Notes: generated by a model not told the origin, from the letters alone. Counted from the stretch's first letter, positions 271 through 46,967 are shown. The stretch is DNA of 54,595 nt from Chitinophaga pinensis (GCA_945860565.1 CAMAQS010000006.1:1-54595); one strand, 5' to 3'. Translations and numbers: made by a program.

Positions 271-1275
271 TTATCTAATGAAATTTAATTCTTTGGTGGC
301 TGGATTGCTTTGTAAAATTCCAATACTGGCTGGCTCTAGAGGCACTTTGTTTACTTCTTGTTTACATCGGCTACCAAACAATCCAAATCCACCTTCTATA
401 TTTGAATATTCCGCTTGTTTTTGCACAATTCCAATGGAAGGTTCGTTAACGGAAATGTAATCGATTAAATTTTGGCTTCCTCCATAATATTGAATTCCAA
501 CCGTTTTGAACTTTCGAATAATGTTTTTGGAAACTGTTAAACTATTGGCTAAAAACTGCAAAAAAGACAATCTATCAATTTGATGAATAACCGTTTGCAT
601 GGGTTGGTTAAACCCGGGTTGCGAAATGGCGTAATTGGTAATGACATTCCAAGTAATATTTTTGGTACCTATGAAAGATGTGTCTGCAGCATTGTATTCT
701 TCAATTTGCGCAGTCATTTTAATATCGAAGGCGTAGGCATTTGTGCCGGGCACATAAGAAATGGTAATATAATTTGCAGCCAAAGAAAAAATGGGTGTGT
801 TGCTTCTAAAAGGCGCTTCAATTCTGGCCTTTCTAAGGGTCCATGTAACTGCACTGGCAATGTTTCCTGTTAGTCCGCTTTTAACTTCTACTTTATACGG
901 TTCGTTTTCGGCAATGGCATTTTTTGTGGTGTAAAGGTAATTCACATCGGAGGCAAATAAACCCGGATTTTTTATTACATTGTTAGTTTTTTGTAAAGGA
1001 ATAACCTCTCCGGTATTTAGGCGAATGAGGTTTACTTCAACGTTTTTTAAATACAAACTATCGGAATTTTGCGCTGCCACCAAAGCACTGGTATTGTTAT
1101 TTAGAAAGGCTTTGTTCACTTTTATATATTGAATGGTGTCGTTGGGATCTAACAAACCATAAACCACCATGGTCTCCTTCCAATCTGCATTGATGTCCAC
1201 TTCATTTTCACAATACGTCAGCCATCCCCCAAAAAAAACAAATAAACCCGTAATTAGAAATCGATTCCCCTTCAT
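271..1275 (-). CDS. DUF4249-like outer-membrane lipoprotein
   Basis: Signal peptide ending LTY-C, then CENEVDINADWKETMVVYGLLDPND..QYIKVNKAF and C-terminal YSNIEGGFGLFGS, typical of Bacteroidota DUF4249 lipoproteins. Confidence 0.7.
   Translation of the reverse strand: MKGNRFLITGLFVFFGGWLTYCENEVDINADWKETMVVYGLLDPNDTIQYIKVNKAFLNNNTSALVAAQNSDSLYLKNVEVNLIRLNTGEVIPLQKTNNVIKNPGLFASDVNYLYTTKNAIAENEPYKVEVKSGLTGNIASAVTWTLRKARIEAPFRSNTPIFSLAANYITISYVPGTNAYAFDIKMTAQIEEYNAADTSFIGTKNITWNVITNYAISQPGFNQPMQTVIHQIDRLSFLQFLANSLTVSKNIIRKFKTVGIQYYGGSQNLIDYISVNEPSIGIVQKQAEYSNIEGGFGLFGSRCKQEVNKVPLEPASIGILQSNPATKELNFIR
1223..1233 (+). repeat. over-represented motif CATCCCCCAAA, exact copy (in DUF4249 gene)
   Basis: Read directly. 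See finding on the motif. Confidence 0.7.
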
Positions 1276-1401
1276 TCAACTGCGAAGGTACTTAAAAGGC
1301 CATGGAAATTGAAATAATGCAGAAACCATGAGCTTTTTTTGACAAAAATGGTTCTTTATTGCGAAATATTTGCAATTATTGCATTCAAATAAACACCATA
1401 C

Positions 1402-2217
1402 ATGTCAGTTCATAGAGAAATTAGGAAAATTACTACGCACGTTTTAAGTGAAATGAAAGCGCGTGGCGAAAAGATTTCAATGCTTACCGCTTACGATTTT
1501 TCAACAGCAAAAATCATTGACGATGCAGGGATTGACGTTATTTTGGTGGGGGACAGTGCTTCGAATGTCATGGCGGGACACGAAACCACTTTGCCCATCA
1601 CTTTAGACCAAATGATTTACCATGCAAGCAGCGTGGTGAGAGGTGTGGTGCGTGCGTTGGTGGTGGTTGATCTGCCCTTTGGAAGTTATCAAGGAAATAG
1701 CAAGGAGGCGCTAAATAGCACCATTCGCATTATGAAAGAATCGGGTGCGCACGCCATTAAAATGGAAGGCGGTGAAGAGATTTTGGAAAGCATAAAACGA
1801 ATTCTTACAGCGGGTGTTCCAGTAATGGGACATTTGGGATTAACGCCACAAAGCATATACAAATTCGGGACGTATACGGTGCGGGCTACGGAAGAAGACG
1901 AAGCAAATAAACTCATTAACGACAGTAAAATGTTGGAAGCCGCAGGCTGTTTTGCTTTGGTTTTGGAAAAGATTCCAGCACATTTGGCCAAAAAAGTTGC
2001 CGAAACGGTAAGTATTCCTGTCATTGGCATTGGTGCTGGTAACGGTGTAGACGGACAAGTATTGGTTTTACACGATATGTTGGGCATTAACAAACAATTC
2101 AATCCAAGATTTTTACGTCGGTATTTAAATTTGTACGACGACATCAAAGACGCGGTTGGGCAATACATTCAGGATGTCAAATCGACGGACTTTCCGAATG
2201 AGAGAGAGCAATATTAA
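1402..2217 (+). CDS. panB: 3-methyl-2-oxobutanoate hydroxymethyltransferase
   Basis: Motifs [44 protein letters not shown]. Confidence 0.97.
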
Positions 2218-2499
2218 ATTGTCGGACAAGAGAAAAAAGCGGGTAGGTCGACCTCTGATTAACTCTATTTAATTTAGCCCAATTTTAGACGAGTTCGAAC
2301 AAGGTGCACCTATCCTAAATTTACATAATTTTAAACCTACCTCAAAAAATACAATTAGATAACATTCAATAACTTAATTAAATTTCATTTGGCTAAATGT
2401 GCATATTATTTGCGCTTTCAGCCAATTCGAAAGTAATTCCATTTGGCTAAAAGTGGAATTTGAATACCATTTTTAATTGGCGGAATGCTAAAAAATCAC

Positions 2500-2537
2500 A
2501 TTAAAAAAGCCCCGATAGATATCGGGGCTTTTTTAAT
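2500..2537. terminator. bidirectional rho-independent terminator
   Basis: ATTAAAAAAGCCCCGATA-GA-TATCGGGGCTTTTTTAAT: perfect inverted repeat with A/T tails, between convergent genes and 16 nt past the zinc-ribbon gene stop. Confidence 0.9.
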
Positions 2538-2553
2538 GGTTTAATATTTTGGT

Positions 2554-3351
2554 TTATTTGGCCGTAGTCAAACGCATTTTACGGCGTGTTGGCTTGTCTT
2601 CTTTGATTTCATCGAATGCAGAAATTCCGCTGATGGTTTGATCCACTAAAATTCTACCGCAATGCTCACAATCGGTAATTTTGATGTGTGCGCGGATGTC
2701 TGAGTGACGTTGTGGTGGAATTTTACTAAAGCAACCACCGCAAGAACCACGAACGATAGGTGCAACCGCAACACTATTTTTCATATTTTCACGAATTCTG
2801 TGGTAAGCACGAGACAAACGTTCGTCAACTCGTTTTAGCGCTGTTTCGCGTTCTTTCTTCAATTTAGTGATTTCCTCTTCGTTTTCTTTTTCGATTTCAG
2901 ACAATTCAGCTTGCTTGAATTCTAAATCGGCTTTTCTGCGGTCTAAAGAAGCTTGAGTAAGGTCTAAAACTTCTTGTTTGCCTTCAATTTGTTTAGAAAA
3001 GTCGCGGATTTTTTTCTCAGCAGACAAGATTTCTAATCCTGCAATCTCTTTTTCTTTGTCAATGGCTTCATACTCACGGCTGTTTTTGATGTTATTCAGC
3101 TGGTCGTCGTATTTTTCAATGGCACGTTGAAAGTCTTTGATTGCATTCTTTTTACTGCTAATTTCAGCATTGTACAAGCTAATCTCTTGTTGGATATGTG
3201 CGACTCTTGTCTCTAAACCTGCAATATCGTCTTCCAAATCTGACACTTCCATTGGCAATTCACCAAGAACTGCGCGTAAGGTGTCTAATTTGTTATCGAT
3301 TTGTTGGAGTTTCCAAAGGTCTTGTAGTTTTTTTTCAACTGTTACGTCCAT
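2554..3351 (-). CDS. coiled-coil protein with C4-type zinc ribbon (CT398/DUF164-like)
   Basis: Long coiled coil followed by CGGCF..IPPQ...CEHCGRIL. Directly follows nif3, the usual gene pair. Confidence 0.9.
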   Translation of the reverse strand: MDVTVEKKLQDLWKLQQIDNKLDTLRAVLGELPMEVSDLEDDIAGLETRVAHIQQEISLYNAEISSKKNAIKDFQRAIEKYDDQLNNIKNSREYEAIDKEKEIAGLEILSAEKKIRDFSKQIEGKQEVLDLTQASLDRRKADLEFKQAELSEIEKENEEEITKLKKERETALKRVDERLSRAYHRIRENMKNSVAVAPIVRGSCGGCFSKIPPQRHSDIRAHIKITDCEHCGRILVDQTISGISAFDEIKEDKPTRRKMRLTTAK

Positions 3352-4503: not shown

Positions 4504-5667
4504 GTGAAAAAAGCGATATTAAAAAAAGGAAAAGAAATTGCCATTCAGCGCAAACACCCATGGATATTCTCAGGTGCCATTGAAAGTATGGACCCATGCA
4601 GTGCCGGCGAATTGATAGAAATTGAAGACAGTAAAGGGAATTTTTGTGCCATTGGACATGTGAGTACAGGCAGTATTACGATCCGAATTATCACCTTTTT
4701 CCAAGAAGAAATCGACCAAGAATTTTGGAATCGCCGTTTAAATGCGTGCAAAGGTGTTCGGGACGACCTGAATCTACATCCCCACAAAACCACAAATACG
4801 TTTAGATTGATACACGGTGAGGGCGATGGTTTGCCTGGACTCATTGTGGACGTCTACGGCTCGGTTGCGGTAATGCAAGCCCATTCCGATGGCATGTTTT
4901 TAGCCTTACCTCTCATAACACAAGCCATTCAAAACGCTTATGGAGAGGACATTTCGACGATTTACAGCAAGAGCAAAGCCTCAATGCACGATGAGTCGAT
5001 TAAAGACACCTATTATTTAGGTAATCAAGCGGAAATTGTTTCGAGTGAGAATGGCATGTTGTTTAACGTGAATTGGGAAATAGGACAAAAGACAGGATTT
5101 TTTATAGATCAGCGCGAAAATCGCCACTTGTTGCGAAATTATTCTCAGGGCAAATCGGTTTTAAATACATTTGCTTATACGGGGGGATTTAGTATTGCGG
5201 CTTTACACGGTGGTGCCAACAAGGTAATATCGGTTGATATATCTAAAACAGCCACTGATTTGTGTACCATCAATGCAGCATTAAACCATCTTGAAGATAA
5301 ACATGAATCCATCACCGCCGATGTAATGGAATATCTGCAATTACAGGATGAGTTGTATGATATTGTCGTATTGGATCCGCCTGCATTTGCCAAAAGTTTA
5401 AAGAAAAAACACGCTGCGACAATGGGTTATAAAAGATTAAATATGTTGGGATTAAAGCGTGTGAAACCTGGGGGACTCTTGTTTACTTTTTCGTGTTCTC
5501 AGGTAATCGATGAAACCTTATTTTTAAATACAGTAACCGCCGCAGCCATAGAATCGGGAAGAAATTGCCGCATTTTGCATCGATTGTCACAAGGGCCAGA
5601 CCATCCAGTTAACATCTTTCACCCAGAGGGTCATTATTTAAAAGGACTGGTTTTGCGGGTAGATTAA
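4504..5667 (+). CDS. rlmI: RlmI-family (PUA + SAM-dependent) 23S rRNA methyltransferase
   Basis: HPWIFSG, RLIHGEGDGLPGL, GQKTGFFIDQRENR, VVLDPPAF, TFSCS, DHP..EGHYLK. Probable GTG start at 4504. Confidence 0.85.
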   Translation: MKKAILKKGKEIAIQRKHPWIFSGAIESMDPCSAGELIEIEDSKGNFCAIGHVSTGSITIRIITFFQEEIDQEFWNRRLNACKGVRDDLNLHPHKTTNTFRLIHGEGDGLPGLIVDVYGSVAVMQAHSDGMFLALPLITQAIQNAYGEDISTIYSKSKASMHDESIKDTYYLGNQAEIVSSENGMLFNVNWEIGQKTGFFIDQRENRHLLRNYSQGKSVLNTFAYTGGFSIAALHGGANKVISVDISKTATDLCTINAALNHLEDKHESITADVMEYLQLQDELYDIVVLDPPAFAKSLKKKHAATMGYKRLNMLGLKRVKPGGLLFTFSCSQVIDETLFLNTVTAAAIESGRNCRILHRLSQGPDHPVNIFHPEGHYLKGLVLRVD

Positions 5668-5685
5668 ACCGTGAATATATTTGCC

Positions 5686-6780
5686 TTATTTCTGGGCAAA
5701 ACGATAAAAAATATACGCCACAGGCACAAAAAGCAAGTTTGGCAACCAAACGGCCAATTGAGGTGTTACAACGCCCGTGGCACCCAAGCTGATGAAATAT
5801 TTACTAAAAAATAAGAAGAAAAGAATTACGAAAATTCCAACTCCAAGTGCAATTCCGAGTCCACCTCTTGTTTTTTTCCCAGCCACAGACACGCCAATGG
5901 CAATAAGAATAAAGGTACTAAACGGTGAAGCATAGCGGCGGTACAATTCGGTATTCAGTGCATTCACATTGGGAGATCCGCGTTCTTTTTCTTTGCTTAT
6001 GAAACTACTTAACTCACTTTGATTCAAACTTTGCACGTCTTCCACTCTAAAGAAAAAATTGGCCGGATTAAATCCTATGTTGGTGTCTAAATATGGAAGA
6101 ACGGTGACCTTTTGATTTCCGTTGGCTAAAAATTCGCGTTGGGTAACCAATTCAAGTCTCCATGTTTTAGTGCGTTTATCCCACCGAATAAACCGTCCAA
6201 ACAAGGTACTTTTTAACTCAACGCCTTTGTATTCTTCAACGGTGACACCTATGCCAGAACTGTCGTGGTTGGAGAAATACTCCATATACATAATCACACC
6301 GGGTTTAATTTGGCGGTAGATGGCATTTCTAGATTCGGACCAATAATCTCTGAGGTAGGTATTTTCGAATTTTACCCGTTTTTTGTCGGATATGGGAATC
6401 AACCATGCATTCAGCAGGTAACTTCCATAGGCCATGAGCGCCCCGACTATCATATAAGGACGGAGAATTCGCAGTAAAGACATCCCCCCAGCCAACATAG
6501 AAATGATTTCAGAACGGGAAGCCATTTTGGAAGTAAAATAGAGTACTGAAATGAAAATAAAAATAGGACTAAATGTATTGATGAGTGTGGGAATGAAACT
6601 CACATAATACACCGAAATAATTTCACTCACTGGCGCATTTCGCTTAAGAAAATTATCTAGCTTCTCGGCAACATCAAAAATGATGATGATGACAACAAAC
6701 AAAAATATAGTCACCAAAAATGTTTTGATGAATTTTGAGGCTATGTAGCGGTCTAACTTATTGAAGTATTTGGACCACAT
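5686..6780 (-). CDS. LptF/LptG family LPS export permease
   Basis: LDRYI N-terminus, three N-terminal TM helices, periplasmic domain, C-terminal AVWLPN. Follows tgt as is common in Bacteroidota. Confidence 0.9.
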   Translation of the reverse strand: MWSKYFNKLDRYIASKFIKTFLVTIFLFVVIIIIFDVAEKLDNFLKRNAPVSEIISVYYVSFIPTLINTFSPIFIFISVLYFTSKMASRSEIISMLAGGMSLLRILRPYMIVGALMAYGSYLLNAWLIPISDKKRVKFENTYLRDYWSESRNAIYRQIKPGVIMYMEYFSNHDSSGIGVTVEEYKGVELKSTLFGRFIRWDKRTKTWRLELVTQREFLANGNQKVTVLPYLDTNIGFNPANFFFRVEDVQSLNQSELSSFISKEKERGSPNVNALNTELYRRYASPFSTFILIAIGVSVAGKKTRGGLGIALGVGIFVILFFLFFSKYFISLGATGVVTPQLAVWLPNLLFVPVAYIFYRFAQK

Positions 6781-7898: not shown

Positions 7899-8602
7899 TT
7901 TTGTGCCATTAAGGAGATGGAAAAAAGCCTAGGAAAAATGGCACTCATAGAACCCGAATAATAGCTGCCTGGAACACGCACCAACGCATTGTTTAATCCA
8001 TTTGACATTTTGAGTTCCACTGATACATCAACATATTCCATTCTAAATTCCCACCCTGCGCCAAATTCATAATAGTACGTATCTTCCTTTAAGGCAACAA
8101 TGGGCTTACTGACACCAATGACCAATTTTTCATTGCTTTGAAAGTCGTGAGACCACCGAACGCCTGCTAAAACGTAAAATCCGGTATTATTTGGCATATC
8201 CGATCGGTACTTAATGGTTAAAGGAATATCTAGGGAAATGGTTTCTATCTTTAGGATTTGATCTGGTGTTTTGGCCCAATCAAATTCAATATTTCTATTG
8301 TGTAATTGCAACATAGTTAACATTTTTAGCTCCCAAGGCCTGCCAATACGCATGGCAACACTGCCACCAAATCCGCCGCCAGTTTGGGCCATCGGACGAA
8401 TATTCAACAAAGAATCGTTGCGCTGCCAGAAAGATTGATCTAGCTGCATTTTCATTTTCGCTTGGGTACCAGAAAAAGCTATCCCCCAAAAAAAACGTTT
8501 ACGAAATAAACGATTGGGATCGCGCGGAGTGGCGTCCAGACTCTGCCATAAGCAGAATATGAGCAATATGGAAATTACTTTACGCAACGGTACAAGGTAC
8601 AA
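7895..8602 (-). CDS. porT: PorT/SprT family outer-membrane beta-barrel (T9SS component)
   Basis: Signal peptide, LDIPLTIKYRS, FYVLAG, YYEFGAG, ELKMSNGLNN. Lies immediately downstream of ubiE, the usual porT context. Start uncertain. Confidence 0.72.
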   Translation of the reverse strand: MYLVPLRKVISILLIFCLWQSLDATPRDPNRLFRKRFFWGIAFSGTQAKMKMQLDQSFWQRNDSLLNIRPMAQTGGGFGGSVAMRIGRPWELKMLTMLQLHNRNIEFDWAKTPDQILKIETISLDIPLTIKYRSDMPNNTGFYVLAGVRWSHDFQSNEKLVIGVSKPIVALKEDTYYYEFGAGWEFRMEYVDVSVELKMSNGLNNALVRVPGSYYSGSMSAIFPRLFSISLMAQN

Positions 8603-11407: not shown

Positions 11408-12785
11408 TAAAATCAAATTTGTCTGGATGTACTACGTTTTCTATTGACCTAAATTTCTGCTCTCCGGATTTCAAATTTCTGCATTGATATCCACGCATCA
11501 TAAATTCATCTCTTCCAATGATATAGGCATAAGAAAAGTTCAATTTATTGGCATATTCGAGTTGTTTTTTAAGCTTTGCGGCGCTGGGATACACTTCATT
11601 TCTGATGCCCAATTCTCTGAGCCGGCGCGAAAGGGCTGTAGCCGTTGGCAAGTATTCATCTTCCATGGCACAGATTAAAGCCGTGGTGGTATTTTGAAAT
11701 GAAGGAAAAATGCCGGCGGCTTCTAGGGTGTCGTAAATGCGGTCTAACCCGAATGAAACACCCACACCTGAAACATCTTTCAAACCAAACATTCCTGTTA
11801 AATTATCATAGCGGCCACCGCCTCCAATGCTGCCAATTTTAAAGTCTTCAGGAACGCGTTCGTCTGATGTTACCACTTCAAATACACAGCCGGTGTAATA
11901 ACTCAATCCACGTGCAAGGGTTAAATCCAATTGTACGCCTCCATCATCCCCCAAAAACGAGAAAAGCTGCCTTAACTCATTCATTCCCAACATTAATGCG
12001 TCATTTTGAATGGGCTCATACGATGCCAAAGCTTCAAAAAGTTCAGAATTATTTGCATTTTGCGCCACATTCCATAGCCAATTCCAATGTGGAACGGAAT
12101 GGCTTAAGCCTCTATTTTCCAATTCAGCCGCTACCCCATCTTGACCAATTTTATCGGCTTTATCAATGGCTACCATGAATGAGCTCCAATTTTCTTTGGA
12201 ACCCAATACTGGCAAAAACGCATCTAAAATACCCCTATGATTTACCTTTACAGTAACCTTTAAATCCAATGACTTGAAAACTTCTAAATACATTTCAACC
12301 AATTCCGCTTCTGATATAATGGAATTGGCACCCACCACGTCAATGTCGCACTGCCAAAATTCTCTATACCGGCCTTTTTGTGGACGGTCGGCTCTCCAAA
12401 CGGGTTGCATTTGATACCGTTTGAAAGGAAATTGAATTTTGTCGCGATTCATCACTACAAATCTGGCCAAAGGAACAGTTAAATCGTAACGCAATCCACG
12501 GTCTACAATTTTAGGAGTAAGGACTTTATAATCCACATTTGCAAGCAGTTGTGGATCTATTTTCGACAAATATTCGCCTGAATTTAAGACTTTAAAAAGC
12601 AACTGATCGCCTTCATCGCCGTATTTACCTTGTAAAGTTTTAAGATTTTCCAACGCTGGAGTTTCGATGGCGTCAAATCCATGTAATTGGAAAACGCGCT
12701 CCATTGTTGAAAGAATGAATTTGCGTTTTTGCATGGTTTCTACACCAAAATCTCTTGTACCCGAGGGCAACGAAGGTTTTTCCAT
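11400..12785 (-). CDS. hisS: histidine--tRNA ligase
   Basis: PSGTRDF, LRYDLTVP, RADRPQKGRYREFWQCD, LARGLSYYTG, GGGRYD, anticodon-binding C-terminus. Confidence 0.97.
   Translation of the reverse strand: MEKPSLPSGTRDFGVETMQKRKFILSTMERVFQLHGFDAIETPALENLKTLQGKYGDEGDQLLFKVLNSGEYLSKIDPQLLANVDYKVLTPKIVDRGLRYDLTVPLARFVVMNRDKIQFPFKRYQMQPVWRADRPQKGRYREFWQCDIDVVGANSIISEAELVEMYLEVFKSLDLKVTVKVNHRGILDAFLPVLGSKENWSSFMVAIDKADKIGQDGVAAELENRGLSHSVPHWNWLWNVAQNANNSELFEALASYEPIQNDALMLGMNELRQLFSFLGDDGGVQLDLTLARGLSYYTGCVFEVVTSDERVPEDFKIGSIGGGGRYDNLTGMFGLKDVSGVGVSFGLDRIYDTLEAAGIFPSFQNTTTALICAMEDEYLPTATALSRRLRELGIRNEVYPSAAKLKKQLEYANKLNFSYAYIIGRDEFMMRGYQCRNLKSGEQKFRSIENVVHPDKFDFNE
11945..11955 (+). repeat. over-represented motif CATCCCCCAAA, exact copy (in hisS)
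   Basis: Read directly. Confidence 0.7.
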
Positions 12786-12848: not shown

Positions 12849-13361
12849 TTAATTTCCAGACAAAGCCCGAAGTTGCTCTTCTAGCTCGTCTTCAGCACCA
12901 GGAGTATAGCCTTGATGTGTATAAACAATTTTACCTTTTGAATCTACAATAAAGGTCATTGGAGGATTATTTACGTTCATTGCACGCGCCAAATCTTGAT
13001 TCTGGTCTATGGCAATGGTATACGCCCAACCTTCACCCAATACTTTTGGTTTCACTTTTTTAACATTGCGGGCATCGTCGATGCTCACAGCCACCAATTC
13101 CATGTTGTATTTTTTGCTCCATTCTTCATAATGGGCATCGATGGCTTGAAGTTCTTTTATGCAGGGACCGCACCAAGTGGCCCAAAAGGAGATTACCGTG
13201 ATTTTACCAGAATCGACCATGCTGCGAAAATCAACAGATTCACCATCAATGGTTTCTACCTTTATGGAAGGCACAGTTTCTTGAGCCGAAAGGGTGCTAA
13301 CAAACAATAAAGACAGTGCGACAAGAAAAAATCCAGGTTTCATATATACAAATTTATTCAT
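12849..13361 (-). CDS. TlpA-family thiol-disulfide reductase (exported thioredoxin-like)
   Basis: Signal peptide and FWATWCGPC motif. Alternative start at 13343 (MKPGFF). Confidence 0.9.
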   Translation of the reverse strand: MNKFVYMKPGFFLVALSLLFVSTLSAQETVPSIKVETIDGESVDFRSMVDSGKITVISFWATWCGPCIKELQAIDAHYEEWSKKYNMELVAVSIDDARNVKKVKPKVLGEGWAYTIAIDQNQDLARAMNVNNPPMTFIVDSKGKIVYTHQGYTPGAEDELEEQLRALSGN

Positions 13362-13375
13362 TTTGGGGGATGTTT
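13359..13375 (-). repeat. extended motif AAACATCCCCCAAAATG, exact 17-mer copy
   Basis: CATTTTGGGGGATGTTT on the + strand. Identical 17-mers at 37803 and (reverse) 46951. Confidence 0.75.
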
Positions 13376-21639: not shown

Positions 21640-22131
21640 TTGTTACCTATTGAAATGAAAGCATTGCTTTTTGGATTGTTATTTTTAAGCATCAAGCCAG
21701 ACTTCATGGTTATTCGCAGTGAATACCGTGCAGCTCTCACATCCCCCAAACACATACAAACATTAAAGTCGAGCACAAAACCCCATATCCAAGATGCATT
21801 GTCTTTGGCTTATTATGCCACCGCAGTTGCTTTGGAAGCAAGGGAATCTTCGTGGGTGCCTACAAAAATAAAATTGGCCAATTCTGCCCATGACCTTTTG
21901 AACAAAGCCGTTACAAAAGACCCGAACTCAATAGAAATTCGTTTCTTACGTTTTAGTTTTCAAGCAAATACGCCTTCCATGCTTGGTTTACAAACGCATG
22001 TTACTGCCGATAAAACTTTTTTATTGGCCAACATACAAACATCACACCCCATGTGGGATGTGATGCATGCATATTATAAACAATGTTCTGCGTTTAGTAC
22101 TACTGAGAAACAGCGCTTGAATCGTCTGTAA
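21640..22131 (+). CDS. hypothetical exported helical protein (EIRFLR family)
   Basis: Signal-like N-terminus (ATG 21655 alternative) and [22 protein letters not shown]...DK.FL. Overlaps the pgk 3' end by 32 nt. Confidence 0.65.
21740..21750 (+). repeat. over-represented motif CATCCCCCAAA, exact copy
   Basis: Read directly. Encodes TSPK in the host ORF. Confidence 0.7.
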
Positions 22132-32435: not shown

Positions 32436-33199
32436 AATTAAATCTAACCAGACCTTTGGTAGTCTTTGACTTAGAAACCACTGGACTAAACATCACCCAC
32501 GACAGAATTGTTGAAATTTGCATGCTCAAAGTCTATCCCAATGCGGACGAAGAACTGCGCACCTACCGCATAAATCCCACCATCCCCATTCCAAAAGTAG
32601 TGAGTGAAATTCATGGAATTTATGATGCCGATGTGGCCGATAAACCAAGTTTTAAGCAACTGGCACCAGAAATTTATCAGTTTTTACAGCAGTGTGATTT
32701 TGGTGGATTCAATTCTAACAAATTTGATTTTCCATTGTTGGTAGAAGAATTCTACCGTGCAGGGGTTGAATTTGACATCGACAATCGGAAATTTGTAGAT
32801 GCACAACGCATTTTCCACGTAAAAGAACCCCGAAACTTATCGGCGGCATACAAGTTTTACTGCGATCAAACTCTCGAAAACGCACATTCTGCCGAGGCCG
32901 ACGCCCTGGCTACATGGGCAATTATTAAAGCTCAAATAGAGAAATATTCAGACATCCCCCAAGAAATGAAAGGACTCCATGAGTTTAGCGGCCAAAATCA
33001 TTTTGTTGACCTTGCAGGGAGATTTGTATATAATGAAAAAAAAGAAGCCGTTTTTAATTTCGGAAAACACAAAGGCAAACCTTTAACACAAGTGTTGCAG
33101 CAGGAACCAAGTTATTATTCTTGGATGATGGATGGGGATTTCCCTCGTCAAACAAAACAAGTTCTTACGAGAATTCGCCTGAGTTTAATGAACAAATGA
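32432..33199 (+). CDS. DEDDh 3'-5' exonuclease (DNA polymerase III epsilon-like)
   Basis: FDLETTGL, FNSNKFD, AHSAEAD, C-terminal FNFGKHKG extension. Confidence 0.92.
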   Translation: MKLNLTRPLVVFDLETTGLNITHDRIVEICMLKVYPNADEELRTYRINPTIPIPKVVSEIHGIYDADVADKPSFKQLAPEIYQFLQQCDFGGFNSNKFDFPLLVEEFYRAGVEFDIDNRKFVDAQRIFHVKEPRNLSAAYKFYCDQTLENAHSAEADALATWAIIKAQIEKYSDIPQEMKGLHEFSGQNHFVDLAGRFVYNEKKEAVFNFGKHKGKPLTQVLQQEPSYYSWMMDGDFPRQTKQVLTRIRLSLMNK

Positions 33200-36258: not shown

Positions 36259-37170
36259 TTATTTCCGCAGTGGGTTCTTCAATTTTGAAGGCCTAAAATC
36301 TCCAATTCGTTGAATAAAACTGATGCTGGGCAAGGGCAAATTGTACAAATTATTCACTTTTCGAACCTCTCCGTACGGACCATGTTCCAAATATTCACCT
36401 CCCCAATTCCCGAAATACATCAAGCCAAAAGACCAACTTTTATTGGAATTTTTAGTGCTGATTAAGCGAAATTGTACGTTTGCATAAATAGAATTTCTTG
36501 GCACCAAAATATCTTTGGGCTTCAATACAAATGGCGAGGTGAGCGGATTGCTTTCGTCTACCAACAGGCGTTGTCCCGCCGAGCCGTATACCCATTGATT
36601 TACCTGCGGCATGTTTTGCCTACCCGATGAGTACCACATTTCCCCTAACAGAAAAATGCGCTCGCTCAAGCGTTTGCATCCCCCAAACTGAAAAACCAAA
36701 GACCCTTCCGGCAAGCGATTTGTTGACAAATACCCCATGGCTAAAGTTGCGTGATTGTCTATGTTTCCAATGGTATATCCTCCGTAAATTAAATTGGCTC
36801 TTATAAAAACGTCGTTCTCAGAAATCAAACTAGATGTCAATACATCTCCCACAATCATGCGTTGATTTTTTGCTACTTCCACTGAATATTGCGGGGCGAT
36901 ATATGCGTAAAATGGCAGAACTAATCCACCCGCAAGAGTAATTTCGTCGGTTATTCCATACTGAATATCGTTTACCAATCCATTTAAATTTTGGTATTGT
37001 AGGGTGCGTTTTTCAACCGGAAAACCCGACTGCATAAACACATACCTTCCTCCAATTAGCACAATTTCAGTAGAATCGGGTGCAGTAGTATCGGGCACAA
37101 TATTTCTTTCGGCCCAACCATTCAAGGCTAGGCTAAAAAATAGAACCATTAATACTACCCTATAAAACAC
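36259..37170 (-). CDS. hypothetical exported protein, probably outer-membrane beta-barrel
   Basis: Signal peptide and amphipathic beta-strand pattern (QYGITDEITLAGG, YGGYTIG, FLLGEMW). No family assigned. Confidence 0.7.
   Translation of the reverse strand: MFYRVVLMVLFFSLALNGWAERNIVPDTTAPDSTEIVLIGGRYVFMQSGFPVEKRTLQYQNLNGLVNDIQYGITDEITLAGGLVLPFYAYIAPQYSVEVAKNQRMIVGDVLTSSLISENDVFIRANLIYGGYTIGNIDNHATLAMGYLSTNRLPEGSLVFQFGGCKRLSERIFLLGEMWYSSGRQNMPQVNQWVYGSAGQRLLVDESNPLTSPFVLKPKDILVPRNSIYANVQFRLISTKNSNKSWSFGLMYFGNWGGEYLEHGPYGEVRKVNNLYNLPLPSISFIQRIGDFRPSKLKNPLRK
36677..36687 (+). repeat. over-represented motif CATCCCCCAAA, exact copy
   Basis: Read directly. Confidence 0.7.
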
Positions 37171-37184: not shown

Positions 37185-38081
37185 TTAATTCTGTGGCTCT
37201 TGTACTTCAACTTTCCAACACTTAATGTGTGCATCGTCGCTGCAAGACACAAATTCGGTATCCGAGAGCCACAAAATTTCATTCACAGAGCTTTTATGCC
37301 CTTGTATCTTTGCTAGGTCTATCACTTTCAACAAGTTGAATTGCTCGTCCCACAACCTAATGCTTTTGTCCATGCTGCCACTTCCAAGCCATTTCCCGTT
37401 AGGACTAACACTCAAGGCATGAATGGTAAACCAATGGGCATCCACCACTTTTTTGACTTCATTTTCGGAATTCCATTGCCCAATTTTTGCGGAACGTCCG
37501 GCATAAATACACTGTTTGTTCCATTCCAACACACGAAATATGCTAGAATCATCGATTTTTTGTTTTTGGAGGATGTTTAATGCGGTGTCCATTTCCCAAA
37601 CTACTCCTTCACTGCCGCAAATCAACACATTGCCCTTCTCCGTTAACGCAGCGTAACGCAAGGATTTGATTGAAAGTTGCACCATTTTCCGAATTTCTCC
37701 GGCATGAGACATGACACACAATTGCCCATCCCCCAAAAGAACAAACAGATTGCCACCGGGAACCGTTAAAATCCAAAATATGCCATGAGTTGCAATTTTT
37801 ACCATTTTGGGGGATGTTTTTTTTTGCAAAAAATACAACTGACCAAATTGTGTTCCTGCTAAAATGGTATTTGAATGGGGCAAGTAAGAAACGGAATAAA
37901 CAGCTTCTGGTATTTGAGCAAACAGCACACCGGTGGTGGATTCTGATGATTCCCAATGTACAATATAACCATCAGAACCGGCGGAGAAAAAACCACCTTT
38001 GCCATCCAAACACATGCAATAAACCGACTGTTTATGTCCGGTAAAGGTGTTCTTCAGTAAAACCGTTATTTTTGCGCTCAT
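37185..38081 (-). CDS. WD40-repeat protein
   Basis: FTGH..SVY, SAGSDG..VHW, DAH.FTI..L.VSPNG..L.SGSMDKSIRLWD, GH.SSVN, SCSDD..IKCW. ATG 38081 preferred, GTG 38141 possible. Confidence 0.88.
   Translation of the reverse strand: MSAKITVLLKNTFTGHKQSVYCMCLDGKGGFFSAGSDGYIVHWESSESTTGVLFAQIPEAVYSVSYLPHSNTILAGTQFGQLYFLQKKTSPKMVKIATHGIFWILTVPGGNLFVLLGDGQLCVMSHAGEIRKMVQLSIKSLRYAALTEKGNVLICGSEGVVWEMDTALNILQKQKIDDSSIFRVLEWNKQCIYAGRSAKIGQWNSENEVKKVVDAHWFTIHALSVSPNGKWLGSGSMDKSIRLWDEQFNLLKVIDLAKIQGHKSSVNEILWLSDTEFVSCSDDAHIKCWKVEVQEPQN
37727..37737 (+). repeat. over-represented motif CATCCCCCAAA, exact copy (in WD40 gene)
   Basis: Read directly. Inverted relative to the copy at 37803. Confidence 0.7.
37803..37819 (-). 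repeat. extended motif AAACATCCCCCAAAATG, exact 17-mer copy (in WD40 gene)
   Basis: CATTTTGGGGGATGTTT on the + strand. Encodes KTSPKM. Confidence 0.75.
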
Positions 38082-39671: not shown

Positions 39672-39686
39672 AAACATCCCCCAAAA
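39672..39686 (+). repeat. extended motif AAACATCCCCCAAAA (15-mer), intergenic upstream of lepA
   Basis: Read directly. Confidence 0.75.
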
Positions 39687-39764: not shown

Positions 39765-41555
39765 ATGGAATTCATCCGCAACTTTTGCATCATTGCACAC
39801 ATCGATCACGGGAAAAGCACATTGGCCGATCGTCTTTTGGAATACACCAAAACCATTGATAAACGGCACATGCAAGCGCAGTTATTGGACGATATGGATT
39901 TGGAGCGCGAGCGTGGAATTACCATTAAAAGCCATGCCATTCAGATGGATTATGAGCTAAACAACCAAAAATACATATTAAACCTGATTGATACTCCTGG
40001 TCACGTAGATTTTAGCTACGAGGTGAGTCGTTCTATTGCAGCATGTGAAGGTGCTCTTTTGATTGTAGATGCTGCTCAAGGTATTGAAGCTCAAACCATT
40101 TCAAATCTATTTATGGCATTGGAACATGGGTTAACCATTATTCCTGTTCTCAATAAAATAGATTTACCCGGAGCCATGCCCGAGGAAGTAAAAGACGAAA
40201 TTGTGGAATTGTTGGGTTGTGAACGTGAAGAAATCATCCATGCCAGTGGAAAAACTGGAGTTGGGGTTTTTGATATTTTAGCAGCCATTATAGATCGTAT
40301 TCCAGCGCCAAAAGGCGATCCAAATGCACCTACAAAAGCATTGATTTTTGATTCTGTATTCAATCCTTTCCGCGGAATTATTGCCTATTACCGTGTGATG
40401 GATGGCTCTATTAGTAAAGGACAGCATGTTAAGTTCATGAACACTGGCATGGATTATATTGCCGATGAAACAGGTGTTCTAAAATTAAATTTACTGCCCC
40501 GTGATTACGTTGGAGCAGGAAACGTAGGATATATCATTTCAGGCATTAAAGATGCCAAAGAAGTGAAAGTTGGTGATACCATTACCGACTTTAAAAATGC
40601 AGCGACCGTTGCTATTAACGGATTTGAAGACGTAAAACCGATGGTATTTGCAGGGATTTACCCAGTAGACACCGAAGATTTTGAAGAATTGCGGGAAGCC
40701 ATGGGCAAACTACAACTCAACGATGCCAGCATTGTTTTTGAACCTGAAAGTTCTGCTGCATTGGGCTTTGGTTTCCGTTGTGGTTTCTTGGGGATGTTAC
40801 ACTTAGAAATCATTCAAGAACGTTTGGAAAGAGAGTTTGGTATGACGGTTATTACTACTGTACCGAACGTGAGTTATATTTGTTATACCACCAAAGGGGA
40901 AACATTGCCTGTTAACAATCCGAGCGATTTGCCTTCTCCAGACAAAATAGACTACGTAGAAGAACCTTATATCAGTGCCACCATCATCACCAAGTCAGAT
41001 TGGGTTGGTCCTGTAATGAGTTTGTGTTTAGATAAACGTGGAATTCTAAAAAACCAAGTTTACCTGACCTCTGATCGTGTTGAGTTGTCGTTTGATATGC
41101 CTTTGGCTGAAATTGTATTTGACTTTTATGATCGTTTGAAGACCATTTCAAAAGGGTATGCGAGTTTTGATTACCACCCTATTGGATACAAAGAAAGCAA
41201 GTTGGTAAAAATGGATATTTTGTTGAATGCAAAACAAGTGGATGCCTTGAGTGCCATCATTCATAAGGACAATGCGTTCGATTTAGGGAAAAAGATTTGC
41301 AAAAAACTCAAAGATTTGATTCCAAAACAACAGTTCGAAATTGCAATTCAAGCAGCAATTGGAGCAAAAGTCATTGCCCGTGAAACCATCTCTGCCCTTC
41401 GTAAAGACGTGACTGCCAAATGTTATGGTGGTGACATTAGTCGTAAACGCAAATTATTAGAAAAGCAAAAAGAAGGTAAAAAGAAGATGCGTTCTGTTGG
41501 TAATGTGGACATTCCCCAAAGCGCCTTCATGGCTGTGTTAAAACTAAACGATTAA
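39765..41555 (+). CDS. lepA: translation elongation factor 4
   Basis: [64 protein letters not shown] 39765 after TATATTTG. Confidence 0.98.
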
Positions 41556-41570
41556 GTATCTTTGGAAGTA

Positions 41571-42686
41571 ATGACTTCCAATCTTGAACTTAATAGACTT
41601 ATATCACTTACATTTTTAAAGGGCATTGGTCCCATTTTAGCGAAATCGATGATACATCGGTTTGGCTCTGCCGAAGCTGTATTTCAAGCCAAAGAGCATG
41701 AACTTTTGAATATAGATGGACTTGGTCCAACGCATATATCTTTGATTAAACAGGTTTCGGAATCATTGTTTTTGCGCGCAGAAACAGAAATAGAATATTG
41801 CGAAAAACACAATATCAATATTATTCCATTTAGCAGTGCAGACTACCCCATTCGTTTAAAACAACTCATTGATAGTCCGGTATTGATTTATGTAAAAGGC
41901 AATGCCCAGTTGAATCATCCACGGACAGTATCTATTGTGGGAACGCGGAAGCCATCGGTACAGAGTTTACAAATGGTGCAACAAATAGTGGAACAATTGC
42001 AAACCTGTGGAATTCAGATTATCAGTGGCATGGCTTATGGTATAGATATTCAAGCACATAAATCCGCTCTTCAAAACGGATTGGAAACCATTGGCGTTAT
42101 GGCCCACGGCTTGGACCAAATTTACCCGAGCAATCATCGGCAAACAGTAGAAGAAATGTTGCATAAAAATGGAAGCATCATCAGCGAAATGCCCATTAAA
42201 ACTGCGTTGCACCCTGATTTGTTTCCCCGCAGAAATCGAATTGTGGCAGGAATGAGTGATGCTTTGATTGTGGTTGAAAGTAAATTAACTGGTGGAAGTA
42301 TGGCCACGGCGCACATTGCACACAGTTACGACCGAGAGGTATTTGCCATCCCCTCACATCCCTACAAAAGCCCAGAAAATGGATGCAATGCGCTGATTAA
42401 ACGAAACATTGCTCATTTAATTGAAGACGGAATGGACCTCATTCGCTGTATGAAATGGAGTCATGCTTTAAAAGAAGTTCCTACAAAACAAATTGAATTG
42501 TTCCCCAATCTAAATGAAGATGAAAAAAACCTATTGCACATCTTAACGGGCAAAAAACTGCACATCGACGAACTGCTAAATTACAGTGATATGCCATTGC
42601 ATAGGCTAACACTCGGGCTATTGGAATTGGAATTAAAAGGAATATTGCAGGTATTACCGGGAAAGTATTACCAACGTATTTCTTAG
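41571..42686 (+). CDS. dprA: DNA-processing protein DprA
   Basis: YP..L, IVGTR, SGMAYGID..AH, FPRRNRIVAG, GGS..TA, REVFA.P, C-terminal winged helix. Confidence 0.95.
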   Translation: MTSNLELNRLISLTFLKGIGPILAKSMIHRFGSAEAVFQAKEHELLNIDGLGPTHISLIKQVSESLFLRAETEIEYCEKHNINIIPFSSADYPIRLKQLIDSPVLIYVKGNAQLNHPRTVSIVGTRKPSVQSLQMVQQIVEQLQTCGIQIISGMAYGIDIQAHKSALQNGLETIGVMAHGLDQIYPSNHRQTVEEMLHKNGSIISEMPIKTALHPDLFPRRNRIVAGMSDALIVVESKLTGGSMATAHIAHSYDREVFAIPSHPYKSPENGCNALIKRNIAHLIEDGMDLIRCMKWSHALKEVPTKQIELFPNLNEDEKNLLHILTGKKLHIDELLNYSDMPLHRLTLGLLELELKGILQVLPGKYYQRIS

Positions 42687-44521
42687 CGTTTTTTGGTTTT
42701 CTGCTGACTGGCTTTCATGGCAGCTTCCATCCTCTTTTGAAAGTTGGATTTCACCACAGGCTTTTTGCGGCTTTCGCTAATTTGGGCATGCAATTTTTTA
42801 TCGTCCACCATTTTACGGATAACGTATTGCTGACCAAAAGTAATCATGTTACTCACAAAATAATACCAAGTTAAACCGGAAGCATAATCGTTCAATACAC
42901 CCAAAAAGATGATTGGCATAAAGTATCCAATCCACTTCATTTGTCCTGTAACACCAGAAATCTGATTGTTTAAATGGGTATAAATAAGGGTTGAAACGGT
43001 CATTAACAGGGTAAACAAACTCAAATGATCACCAAAAAATGGAATGGTAAATCCAAAATCTAAGATAGAATCATAACGACTTAAATCGTGAGACCATAGG
43101 AATGATTTTTGTCGCAGTTCAAATGCCACTGGAAAAAACTGAAACATGGCAAACAAAATGGGCAATTGTAACAACATCGGAACACAGCCGGACAGCGGAC
43201 TTACACCCGCTTTTTTATAAAGAGCCATGTTATCTGCTTGTACTTTTTGCATGTCGCTGCCGTGTTTCTCCTTAATTTCATCGATTTCAGGCTTAAGGAT
43301 ACGCATTTTAGCAGTTGAAATGTAGGATTTATAAACCAAAGGCAACAAGAACATTTTGATGATGAAAGTCAGCATCATAATGATGATACCCATTTCACCG
43401 ATTACATTGCCTAACATGGCAAAAACAGGAATTACAACTCCTCTATTTACCCAGCCAAAAATACCCCAACCCATTGGAATGATGCGTTCTAGTTCGGCAT
43501 TTGCAACTCCTATATTGGTATTTTCTAATGTTTTATAGTGGTTTGGTCCAAAGTAAAAGCTAAAGTTTAGGTTTTTAGTTGGTTCACCTTTGTATTCTGA
43601 AAACAACTGAGCGGACATTTTTTTTATGTTGTGGGAATCTCTTTCATCGTGGAGACTCATGGAGATTTTTGCATCGCTCAAAATGTCTGACTGGCTTGCT
43701 AAAACGGCGGAGAAATACTGTTGTTTAAAGCCTACCCAATTGATTTTATTCTTGAGTGTCTCAGAAGTTTCTTCCGTTGAAGTAACACTAACTGGTTCTT
43801 CATTTGGCATTTTATAGACGATGGCAGAATTTTGCAAATCCCACTTCATGTCCTTTTCTTGTTTTTGAAGGACGGCATCCCAATTCAGTTTAAAATCGGA
43901 ATTACCACGGCGAATGTAGTTGTCCATCCCTACAATATTCACAGAATAACCTACAACATATTGGCTAGACTTAAGGGTGTAGGTTTGTTCTATATAAGAG
44001 GTTGGTGACAGGCGCACAGCAAATTTGATAGAGCTGTCGGTTTGCGCAGCAACTTCCCAAAAGAAATCTTTGGAATTAAGAATTTTACCGTCGCGGTCGT
44101 TCCAAGACCAATTCATTTGATGTTTGTCTTTTTCTAATAGAATTAGGTCTGTTGAGTCGGCTCTTTTAAATTGGTTTAATTTAACAGATTGAATGGTACC
44201 GCCTTTGTTAGAGAAGGTAAGCGTCAGGTCTTTGTTTGTAATAAACGACGATTTTTCAGTTCCTTGGGTATACTGGGCCAATTCTTTGGTCACATTTTGG
44301 GCTAGTGAATCAATTTTAGCCGCAACAACGGAAGAGTCCGCGATTTTGGGGGATTCAACGATTGCCGACTTCAGTTTGGCTTTTTCCGCATCGACTTTGG
44401 CAAGGCTATCTTGCGTTTTGCGGATTTGGGCTTGTTGCTCTGGAGTAGGCGCTGTGTACCAGTAGTATCCTGTAAGGATTAAAAAAATAAGTGAAAAACC
44501 AATAATTGTATTGCGATCCAT
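42683..44521 (-). CDS. yidC: membrane protein insertase YidC
   Basis: MDRNTIIGF, YFGPN, GWGIFGW, AKMRILKPE, GVSPLSGCVP.LLQ.P, ELRQ..FLW..DL. Start moved to ATG 44521. Confidence 0.96.
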   Translation of the reverse strand: MDRNTIIGFSLIFLILTGYYWYTAPTPEQQAQIRKTQDSLAKVDAEKAKLKSAIVESPKIADSSVVAAKIDSLAQNVTKELAQYTQGTEKSSFITNKDLTLTFSNKGGTIQSVKLNQFKRADSTDLILLEKDKHQMNWSWNDRDGKILNSKDFFWEVAAQTDSSIKFAVRLSPTSYIEQTYTLKSSQYVVGYSVNIVGMDNYIRRGNSDFKLNWDAVLQKQEKDMKWDLQNSAIVYKMPNEEPVSVTSTEETSETLKNKINWVGFKQQYFSAVLASQSDILSDAKISMSLHDERDSHNIKKMSAQLFSEYKGEPTKNLNFSFYFGPNHYKTLENTNIGVANAELERIIPMGWGIFGWVNRGVVIPVFAMLGNVIGEMGIIIMMLTFIIKMFLLPLVYKSYISTAKMRILKPEIDEIKEKHGSDMQKVQADNMALYKKAGVSPLSGCVPMLLQLPILFAMFQFFPVAFELRQKSFLWSHDLSRYDSILDFGFTIPFFGDHLSLFTLLMTVSTLIYTHLNNQISGVTGQMKWIGYFMPIIFLGVLNDYASGLTWYYFVSNMITFGQQYVIRKMVDDKKLHAQISESRKKPVVKSNFQKRMEAAMKASQQKTKKR

Positions 44522-44647
44522 AATGGAGGTGCGAAGGTACGATAAAGGTGTGTAAACAAAAAGTGAAGAATATAGTGTCAAATATTATCAAAAATTGCAT
44601 TAATTATAACGACTTCTACAATTATAATAACTATATTTGCACCCTGA

Positions 44648-46165
<1,518 letters not shown>

Positions 46166-46177
46166 TATCTCTAAAGA

Positions 46178-46408
46178 ATGCAAGTAGAAATTTTAACACC
46201 CGATAAAACCTTGTTCACAGGTACCGCTGAAATCATCACTTTTCCAGGTACCGACGGTAGTTTTCAAGTAAAAGAAAATCACGCTGCAATGATTAGCAGT
46301 TTGGTGAAAGGCATACTTGAAGTACAATCTGCCAATGAAACTGTAAAATTCGATATCAACGGTGGATTGGTAGAAGTTTTGTCAAATAAAGTCGTGGTGT
46401 TGGTTTAA
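46178..46408 (+). CDS. atpC: F0F1 ATP synthase subunit epsilon (short, beta-sandwich only)
   Basis: EILTPD, PG.DG.F.V..NHA, GG.VEV. Directly after atpD. Confidence 0.93.
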   Translation: MQVEILTPDKTLFTGTAEIITFPGTDGSFQVKENHAAMISSLVKGILEVQSANETVKFDINGGLVEVLSNKVVVLV

Positions 46409-46432
46409 TAACACAAGCAATCTATTTTATAT

Positions 46433-46462
46433 AAGGCCATCCTAAGGGGTGGCCTTTTTTTT
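46433..46462 (+). terminator. rho-independent terminator of atpDC
   Basis: AAGGCCATCC-TAAG-GGGTGGCC followed by T8. Confidence 0.9.
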
Positions 46463-46950
46463 GTACGAATAAACGTCCCTTGAAAAAAGAAGCCTTTCTT
46501 GGTATTTACTTTTTGAGGGATTTTAATAGGCTCATAAAATCAACAAGATTACAGATAGAGATTCAAGGAAACATGACAAAATTAAACAAATCAAAGTATC
46601 CATCTTGCAATCAATTGTGGTTGCAATACTAAAATTAAAGCAATGAATTCATCGGAATATTGGCAGCAAACCATTTGTAATGAGTTAAAAAATCATTTCA
46701 ACACCCTATAAAAGCATATTTGAAAGACCCTCCGATATCTTGACAATTCTCAGTACCAAAAGTTGTTTTCAAGAAAGAGAGAATCGTGCTGCCATAATTT
46801 GCAGATTGATTTAAGTACTGATTTTAGTACAATCTACCGGTGAAACTACCCATACGAAATAAATGGAGAATGAGTGGATGTTTGGTGAAATAAACCCACC
46901 TAATCTAGATTTTGCAGGCCTCGGGGTTTATGTAAACAATATAATTGAAA

Positions 46951-46967
46951 AAACATCCCCCAAAATG
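46951..46967 (+). repeat. extended motif AAACATCCCCCAAAATG, exact 17-mer copy (intergenic)
   Basis: Read directly. Confidence 0.75.

Follow-up and report, generated by a model that had tools for sequence, protein, structure and literature searches.

What has placed hundreds of copies of one short, non-palindromic sequence in the genome of an uncultured bacterium? The question is raised by a stretch of 54,595 nucleotides (GCA_945860565.1, CAMAQS010000006.1; henceforth the window), which is contig C6 of the metagenome-assembled genome (MAG) G000 (2,392,316 bases in 156 contigs, 36.4% GC, 87.7% complete), and in which a preliminary description had noticed a recurrent 11-mer, CATCCCCCAAA. That description had taken the DNA to come from Bacteroidota, and rightly so: G000 is the MAG of an uncultured freshwater member of Flavobacteriales, and the best match of its LepA protein among named records (85%) is to a MAG titled "Flavobacteriales bacterium". 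We give about an even chance to the proposal that the motif is a signal for uptake or self-recognition in natural transformation that has accumulated by molecular drive; it would then work like the DNA uptake sequence (DUS) of Neisseriaceae and the uptake signal sequence (USS) of Pasteurellaceae, although we do not file it as a member of either. We favor this reading because the enrichment, the strand symmetry, the intragenic majority of the sites, their origin by substitution, the invariant core, the AT-rich flank and the clade-ordered dialects together make up the signature of DUS and USS.

Enrichment and shape of the motif

The 11-mer CATCCCCCAAA occurs in the window in nine exact copies, where 0.07 are expected and the highest count in any of 100 dinucleotide-preserving shuffles is 1; all nine had been read at their correct positions and on their correct strands (Table 1). 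The core ATCCCCCAA is present 13 times (0.63 expected), with the previously noticed copies found at 8481+, 32954+, 33991+ and 44346- (the last had been given as about 44345-), and the 17-mer AAACATCCCCCAAAATG is present three times, identical at 13359-, 37803- and 46951+ as had been claimed (0.00 expected). Nineteen sites of the window lie within one mismatch of the 11-mer (1.62 expected), and the near-copies at 30511-, 37565-, 38236+ and 41510+ were each found no more than one base from where they had been placed. The impression that most of the longest copies are intergenic holds for the window, where two of the three 17-mers lie between genes, but not for the genome as a whole, in which only 48 of 171 flanked copies of CATCCCCCAAA fall outside the open reading frames (ORFs; crude longest-ORF calls).

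The enrichment is neither confined to the window nor lost at the scale of the genome, two outcomes that the preliminary description had named as telling against it. With expectations from an order-3 Markov model, CATCCCCCAAA occurs in G000 173 times (91 on the plus and 82 on the minus strand) against 2.55 expected, ATCCCCCAAAA 262 times against 4.16 and ATCCCCCGAAA 66 times against 1.05, so that the ratio of observed to expected counts is about 63-68 for all three words. The degenerate form ATCCCCCRAAA is found 328 times (about 5.2 expected) and its core ATCCCCC 769 times, and members of this motif family head the lists of over-represented words at every length from 8 to 12. Among the top 15 over-represented 8-mers, the only ones unrelated to the motif are the palindrome GGTCGACC (42 copies, 12 expected) and CGACGACG (31 copies, 9 expected).

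In the logo built from the 769 ATCCCCC sites, C is favored at position -1 and A at positions -2 and -3; the run of C is followed by A or G and then by AAA, beyond which A makes up 50-60% to about position +19, and a weak G/C patch lies at -12 to -7. The consensus is therefore (A/C)ATCCCCC(A/G)AAA with a trailing A-rich stretch of about 10 bases, and it looks alike for the 623 sites within and the 146 sites outside the ORFs. The positions differ strongly in the substitutions found there. All variants of ATCCCCCAAAA at T1, C2 and C3 occur at or below about their expectation, except for C3-to-G (3.7-fold), whereas the C5-to-T variant is enriched 25-fold (68 copies), the variants A7-to-G and A7-to-C 63-fold and 29-fold, respectively, and the outer A positions exhibit moderate tolerance. 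The length of the C run has an optimum at five (262 copies; runs of four and six Cs have 55 and 39, respectively). Tolerance graded by position in this way is characteristic of recognition between protein and DNA, and not of copies of an element.

Two observations stand beside this picture. Near-identical flanks extending over tens of bases are shared by the sites C113:383 and C125:270, and by C41:2963 and C41:4543; these belong to a small minority of sites, and lie within larger repeats. Secondly, G000 also contains 78 copies of RTCCCTCAAAA, the form of the motif typical of a sister clade, of which ATCCCTCAAAA alone accounts for 68 (2.7 expected). They may be either a relic of an ancestral form or the outcome of relaxed specificity at that position. 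A chimeric MAG was rejected as their source, as the T-type and C-type copies co-vary across contigs (rho 0.27), and the former are not concentrated in low-GC contigs.

Distribution along the chromosome

The 376 sites of the form ATCCCCCRAA in G000 are divided almost equally between the strands (185 plus, 191 minus). Relative to the ORFs, 145 are in sense and 144 in antisense orientation, and 87 (23%) lie outside, in the 11% of the genome that is not covered by ORFs; thus 77% of the sites are intragenic. All six frames are used, and the peptides encoded genome-wide (xSPK/E, IPQ/R, xPPK, xLGD, FGGx and FWGx) repeat those previously read from the window (FGGx, xLGD, TSPK, IPQ, xPPK and FWGx). With six frames in use and the sense and antisense counts equal, an origin in peptide or codon usage is rejected, as had been argued for a peptide motif from the window alone. 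Promoters and terminators were rejected as well: most of the sites are in ORFs, the intergenic ones have no consistent position with respect to gene starts or ends, and of the only 11 pairs in G000 with members less than 150 bp apart, seven are direct and four inverted. Sites are found throughout the ORFs, slightly more often near the 5' end, an effect that probably reflects starts called too far upstream. We conclude that, as far as can be judged from sequence, the motif is recognized as DNA itself, and is not a feature of a peptide, an RNA, a promoter or a mobile element.

At least one site is present in 123 of the 156 contigs; 33 lack one, compared to 40 expected under a Poisson distribution, and the spacing is Poisson-like (coefficient of variation 1.04). 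The density of sites rises about 2-fold from low-GC to high-GC windows of 10 kb (rho 0.43). This dispersal argues against matS-like and parS-like functions. In addition, matS, parS and NBS are palindromic, present in tens of copies and clustered in one chromosomal domain, while the motif described here is non-palindromic, present in hundreds of copies and evenly spread.

Chi and KOPS, which resemble the motif in being short, non-palindromic, over-represented and spread through core genes, are defined by their co-orientation with replication; they are also shorter words with much lower enrichment. In G000 the orientation of the motif is not associated with the local GC skew (counts of 52 and 40 versus 65 and 39, Fisher p=0.47), while in the same windows the orientation of ORFs is strongly associated with it (odds ratio 3.2, p=7.5e-21). 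Because the contigs of G000 are short, the comparison was repeated on 1.18 Mb of the related genome G018, comprising three large contigs. There, the C-rich strand of the motif coincides with the G-skewed strand at 131 sites and not at 113 (54% vs 46%, p=0.28), no flip of orientation accompanies the clear switch of skew in contig C1, and the density is even in 50 kb bins, while ORF orientation again follows the skew (odds ratio 2.56, p=1.1e-11). An apparent excess of one strand on the same contig did not survive the GC-skew test. The lack of strand or replication polarity argues against Chi and KOPS, and an unskewed, dispersed pattern, here assessed by GC skew in both genomes, is the one that the preliminary description had assigned to DUS and USS.

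We therefore regard as decidedly remote the explanation that a helicase-nuclease of the AddAB/RecBCD type reads the motif as a Chi-like signal for recombination or self-marking, which would protect self DNA and stimulate the loading of RecA. Contig C20 has an ORF of 1057 aa whose PDDEXK_1 nuclease domain is compatible with AddA or AddB, one strand of the motif is G-rich, and the density is similar to that of Chi in Escherichia coli, where it occurs about every 5 kb; Chi is also known to differ between lineages. However, such a signal should be co-oriented with the skew, which was observed in neither genome, and a word of at least 11 bases with a flank of about 10, enriched about 60-fold, is unlike Chi, which has 5-8 bases and a modest enrichment.

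Dialects within one genus and the origin of the sites

The motif is enriched in a single genus of uncultured Flavobacteriales, for which 27 genomes including G000 were available (those of the relatives are designated by G-numbers). ATCCCCCRAAA is present in 9-385 copies in all 19 congeners scored, and in 0-19 copies in 81 genomes from 14 other genera of the family; ATCCCCCAAAA is present in 0-5 copies in 16 genomes of another family of the order, and 1.41 Mb from 78 other Bacteroidota loci contain 1 and 2 copies of two motif types. As a control, the motif pattern was read backwards and scored per strand in each genome, which gave counts of 0-5 throughout. LepA proteins 74-78% identical to that of G000 were also found in public MAG records titled Bifidobacteriaceae or Lachnospiraceae (loci L004, L064 and L037), the taxonomy in whose titles is probably wrong.

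As the preliminary description had suggested checking, related genomes carry the motif in dialects, of which the genus has three. The A dialect, ATCCCCCAAAA, is that of G000 only (262 copies, besides 66 of the G type and 78 of the T type). The G or CG dialect, ATCCCCCGAAA, is carried in 71-250 copies by seven genomes (G002, G004, G005, G013, G023, G024 and G046), and the T dialect, RTCCCTCAAAA, in 219-380 copies by eight (G007, G011, G015, G016, G018, G020, G022 and G068). The remaining eleven genomes have at most 26 copies of any of the three. Unbiased k-mer scans recovered ATCCCCCGAAA as the top word in 400 kb of G004 (44 copies, 0.25 expected) and TTTTGAGGGA in 400 kb of G018 (60 copies, 1.81 expected), while in 253 kb of G003, the sole motif-poor genome scanned, nothing exceeded a z-score of about 6.

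The dialects follow clades in a codon tree of a single gene, lepA, from 21 congeners and two outgroups. Genomes with the T dialect form one clade (support 100/100), to which G000 is the sister with moderate support (82/91); those with the CG dialect, including G024, form two clades (100/100 each), and the motif-poor genomes fall into three lineages. Since the backbone of this tree is not resolved, a single origin of the motif is plausible but not shown.

These results, taken together with the enrichment, effectively refute an artefact of assembly, binning or composition, or a bias in codons or homopolymers. A MAG in 156 contigs and of limited completeness, in which the density of sites rises with local GC, could raise such a suspicion, but the enrichment stands against both dinucleotide shuffles and the Markov model, the backwards-read control stays near zero, all six frames are used, and the genomes of 16 separate species in the genus share the motif family, which sister genera with comparable GC content and genome size lack.

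How the sites arose was studied by aligning positions 30000-48000 of the window (18 kb) with the syntenic regions of G002, G004, G005 and G023. In coding regions, sites of G000 face related non-motif sequences in these four congeners, such as GATTTGCCTAAC opposite GACATCCCCCAAG, or GCCTCCAAAG and ACCGCCCAAAA opposite ATCCCCCAAAA. Each lineage has sites of its own, which go back to proto-sites (GCCTCC and CCACC are examples) through changes that include non-synonymous ones; conversely, sites of G002, G004 and G023 are missing from G000. One site is shared and differs at the dialect position only, being TTTCGGGGGAT in three genomes, TTTTGGGGGAT in G005 and TTTTGGTGGAT in G000. A wider but thin sample, in which 324 sites of G000 were compared with about 0.25-0.42 Mb of each of three congeners, yielded 25 alignments covering the motif; 24 of these are free of gaps, and the motif, in some dialect, is also present at 9 of the 24 orthologous positions. 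Within the window, the pair of sites at 37727 and 37806 in a WD40-repeat ORF aligns to the orthologue from G005 without gaps, with TSPK opposite AKEP and LLGDG opposite AGGSG. This inverted pair (37727-37816) occupies a poorly conserved stretch between the repeats, where the frame is open. Orthologues thus do not keep the same residues and codons at these sites; it is their conservation in motif-free genomes that the preliminary description would have regarded as adverse to its view. The alignments indicate that the sites arise by point substitution at tolerant positions and not by insertion.

The same data bear on other sequence-biased processes, namely mismatch or nick repair directed by the motif and accompanied by biased gene conversion, or a miniature mobile element, which we consider rather improbable. 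Biased conversion would also generate sites from near-motif proto-sites, and the few copies with longer common flanks (C113/C125 and the two on C41) would suit a mobile element. Nevertheless, all variants at positions 1-3 are at or below expectation and not one transition only, contrary to what repair of the very-short-patch type produces, and the T variant at position 5 is enriched instead of depleted. The information is limited to about 11 bases and a compositional flank, and gap-free alignments and a location mostly in ORFs indicate that the sites are not insertions. In particular, repetitive extragenic palindromic (REP) sequences and miniature inverted-repeat transposable elements (MITEs) are intergenic insertions with a conserved, usually hairpin-forming body, a description that does not fit the motif. 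HIP1 of cyanobacteria, which also occurs in genes, shares with REP, MITEs and the present motif the property of being a highly iterated short sequence; HIP1 and REP are palindromic, while the motif is non-palindromic, mostly intragenic and made by substitution.

Machinery, comparison with known systems and the remaining rival

If the motif is an uptake signal, a DNA-binding component of the natural-transformation machinery would prefer fragments that bear it, and DNA of the same species would consequently enter the cell and recombine at a higher rate. Molecular drive would then spread any point mutation by which a site is created or improved, so far as the encoded protein allows it; as the specificity of the receptor drifted, the genomic motif would follow, giving rise to clade-specific dialects. 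We infer that the recognizing protein belongs to the uptake machinery, and that the organisms are competent.

Sequence-specific uptake in Neisseria works through a pilin of type IV pili (T4P). The DUS (AT-GCCGTCTGAA, read by the minor pilin ComP) shares with the motif a non-palindromic sequence of 10-12 bases, vast over-representation, and a presence on both strands and in genic as well as intergenic DNA. According to the parts of PMC3630211 that concern these features, it has an invariant inner core and tolerant outer positions, the core being CTG in DUS and TCC here, and its lineage dialects likewise run along the phylogeny. In contrast to DUS, the motif belongs to a different phylum, Bacteroidota, and is not enriched in inverted-repeat pairs of the terminator type in G000. 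With the T4P ATPase and secretin not found in this genome, a ComP-type receptor is unlikely. The USS of Pasteurellaceae (AAGTGCGGT with AT-rich flanks) consists of a short, strong core and weak AT-rich flanking segments, an architecture that the motif shares, and its frames are likewise biased though all used. As stated in the relevant portion of PMC2817400, USS are located mostly in ORFs (65% in Haemophilus influenzae, compared to 77% for the motif in G000) and at residues of low conservation, and they are missing from the orthologues of relatives that have no such motif, as is the case here. The motif differs from USS in its sequence, in a flank that is A-rich on one strand only, in a lower copy number, and in that no T4P ATPase or secretin was found.

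Several points weigh against an uptake signal. The density of about one site per 6-7 kb is several-fold below that of classical DUS and USS; in comparison with the thousands of copies cited for DUS in PMC3630211, it is lower about 5-10 times. The contigs C5 (60,916 bases) and C11 (45,129 bases) have one site each, where 9.6 and 7.1 are expected. Both have a low GC content (about 33.5%) and are not enriched for another dialect; mobile islands were rejected in their case, as they encode the housekeeping proteins RecQ, ribonucleotide reductase, LeuRS, CarB and ABC-F, and the depletion could be regional heterogeneity or an effect of binning from a mixed population. Inverted pairs of the terminator type, typical of DUS in Neisseria, are not enriched. 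The T4P ATPase (PF00437, T2SSE) and secretin (PF00263) had no match in G000, which is 87.7% complete, pilin genes not having been searched; as the known receptor machinery for uptake sequences is that of T4P, the sole experimentally known type of receptor is missing. DUF5689, the Pfam domain of a Riemerella transformation protein, was not detected in G000, and gives weak matches in 7 of the 27 genomes, none of them in the group with the ATCCCCC dialect. The gene comEC is present in 24 of the 27 genomes, and competence genes do not separate the motif-rich from the motif-poor ones. A candidate surface protein encoded next to comF, described below, is intact in all 11 genomes probed, including the motif-poor G001, G003, G019 and G021. 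Finally, all the statistical features of the motif are likewise compatible with a sequence-specific DNA-binding protein inside the cell, with selection or drive acting on its sites.

With the T4P ATPase and secretin not found, a novel type of receptor would be required. A candidate system is the T4P-independent machinery of the Riemerella type, known from the same order. Flavobacteriales can be naturally transformable without T4P (PMC7965970, PMC8459023, in the parts that deal with it), and transformation of R. anatipestifer requires ComEC, DprA, ComF and RecA together with four proteins unrelated to the known machinery, among which the corresponding text of PMC8459023 lists a DUF5689 protein that the authors' localization software places in the fimbrium, a predicted outer-membrane protein and a helix-hairpin-helix protein. 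R. columbina prefers its own DNA; in the pertinent passages of PMC7965970, only k-mers of the poly-A type are proposed as candidate uptake signals, with no discrete over-represented motif. G000 has homologues of comEC (195 bits), dprA, comF (TIGR00201, E=1.6e-24, below the subfamily cut-off of NCBI) and a ComEA-like ORF of 242 aa with an HHH_3 domain, whereas the DUF5689 surface protein, which is essential in Riemerella, escaped detection by Pfam. These four genes carry little weight, because they are widespread and also present in motif-poor congeners; we agree with the preliminary description that dprA is too common to be more than context, and the same applies to comEC. Among the motif-poor genomes, G009 (96% complete) yielded no ComEC domain, and in G003 and G012 this domain scores clearly lower (144-148 bits) than in most congeners (168-195). 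Possibly these are hints of a decay of competence in part of the motif-poor lineages, although G019 and G021 combine few copies of the motif with a normal ComEC.

The weak DUF5689 matches are located in a protein some 1060 aa long, which comprises Calx-beta domains, a C-terminal sorting domain of the type IX secretion system (T9SS) and a conserved all-beta region with weak hints of DUF5689 and of an OB-like fold. Its gene directly adjoins comF in two divergent congeners, G018 and G000 (Table 1). Sequence identity of the protein between clades is about 50%, with no decisive dialect signal. For its conserved domain (residues 645-885), a model built from an 11-sequence alignment was unusable (mean predicted local distance difference test score 47.7), a profile search of solved structures returned only RPA2 (E=0.44), and a protein atlas gave scores of at most 0.83, where 13% of the cluster members have DUF5689 and 10% have tRNA_anti-codon; these are leads only. 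It is possible, on the basis of domain content and gene order, that this protein is a surface DNA-binding partner of the transformation machinery, and a new receptor exported by the T9SS might be of this kind, i.e. the Calx-beta/OB-like protein adjacent to comF. A search for the receptor by presence and absence was fruitless, as neither DUF5689 nor comEC nor this protein tracks the motif.

The preliminary description had left the choice between a lineage-specific uptake signal and a site for a nucleoid or repair protein. The comparisons made here favor the pattern of DUS and USS, but the failure to find the T4P ATPase and secretin does not, and a site for a chromosomal binder would also fit. 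Such a genus-specific intracellular protein, associated with the nucleoid, with chromosome organization or with loading of the condensin type, would keep its sites under selection and co-evolve with them to yield dialects. The non-palindromic core with an A-tract-like flank is a signature of bendable DNA, the graded tolerance of positions is that of any protein-DNA interface, the sites are evenly dispersed, and the search of G000 for the T4P ATPase and secretin was negative. We nonetheless consider this, the main rival, unlikely, as a copy number that varies about 30-fold among congeners, with 11 of 27 genomes near background and no motif in the scan of G003, would be odd for an architectural need. 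The rapid turnover of positions (9 of 24 kept) and the location of 77% of the sites in ORFs, at poorly conserved residues, also speak against it, and the motif is unlike matS, parS, KOPS, NBS and SBS, which are either palindromic and few, or polar.

Table 1. Copies of the motif in the window (exact copies are those of CATCCCCCAAA), with dprA and the comF-adjacent genes
Feature	Position	Strand	Context
Exact copy	1223..1233	+	Within 5' part of ORF 271-1275(-)
One-mismatch copy TATCCCCCAAA, core ATCCCCCAA intact	8480..8490	+
Exact copy	11945..11955	+	Within histidyl-tRNA synthetase ORF 11400-12785(-)
Exact copy (13362) in 17-mer AAACATCCCCCAAAATG	13359..13375	-	Intergenic; ORF ending at 13361, next starting at 13422
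One-mismatch copy CATCCTCCAAA	18455..18465	-
Exact copy	21740..21750	+	Within ORF 21640-22131(+)
One-mismatch copy CAACCCCCAAA	30385..30395	-
G-dialect copy CATCCCCCGAA	30511..30521	-	Orthologous site of G023 also bears the motif
CATCCCCCAAG	32953..32963	+	Aligned position unrelated in four relatives, e.g. GATTTGCCTAAC, hence a G000-specific gain through several substitutions
AATCCCCCAAA	33990..34000	+	Proto-sites such as AGCCTCCAAAG at aligned position in relatives
Exact copy	36677..36687	+	In ORF 36259-37170(-); CATCCTCCAAG or CAGCCGCCCAT in relatives
One-mismatch copy CATCCTCCAAA	37565..37575	-
Exact copy	37727..37737	+	In WD40-repeat ORF 37185-38141(-), encodes LLGD; gap-free alignment to G005 orthologue
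Exact copy (37806) in 17-mer	37803..37819	-	In same WD40 ORF 37185-38141(-), encodes TSPK; inverted pair with 37727, 78 bp apart
T-dialect-like copy CATCCCTCAAA	38236..38246	+
Exact copy	39675..39685	+	Intergenic, 68 bp upstream of lepA (39753-41555)
One-mismatch copy CATTCCCCAAA	41510..41520	+
dprA	41562..42686	+	DNA_processg_A, 243 bits
AATCCCCCAAA, core intact	44345..44355	-
Exact copy (46954) in 17-mer	46951..46967	+	Intergenic, between ORFs 44657-46165 and 47202-47741
comF/Calx-beta pair, G000	C3:26827-29967 and adjacent ORF (L177:1501-4707, L177:4846-5553)	-
comF/Calx-beta pair, G018	L176:4669-5358, 5442-8621	+

To our knowledge, sequence-specific DNA uptake has been established experimentally in two proteobacterial families only. 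In the passages of PMC7965970 that name examples of uptake sequences, these are from H. influenzae and Neisseria alone, and among open-access papers and bioRxiv preprints we found neither an uptake sequence nor this motif described for Bacteroidota. A more ambitious form of our proposal, which we put somewhat short of an even chance, is that the motif represents a third, independently evolved uptake-sequence system, the first outside Proteobacteria, in Bacteroidota that lack T4P and use a new, sequence-specific surface receptor for DNA, with the three dialects acting as barriers to gene flow among freshwater species that occur together. Should the recognizing protein turn out to be an intracellular binder instead, the motif would be an unusually strong and fast-evolving genome-wide DNA signal, for which we found no counterpart described in the phylum. 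If the motif is an uptake signal, self-biased transformation would have evolved more than twice, and the T4P-independent pathway of Flavobacteriales would be expected to include a new outer-membrane DNA receptor. For the search for this receptor the genus offers a natural experiment, with 16 motif-bearing genomes in three dialects to be compared with 11 motif-poor ones. The dialects would then be candidate species barriers in abundant freshwater bacterioplankton, in which recombination is usually only inferred.

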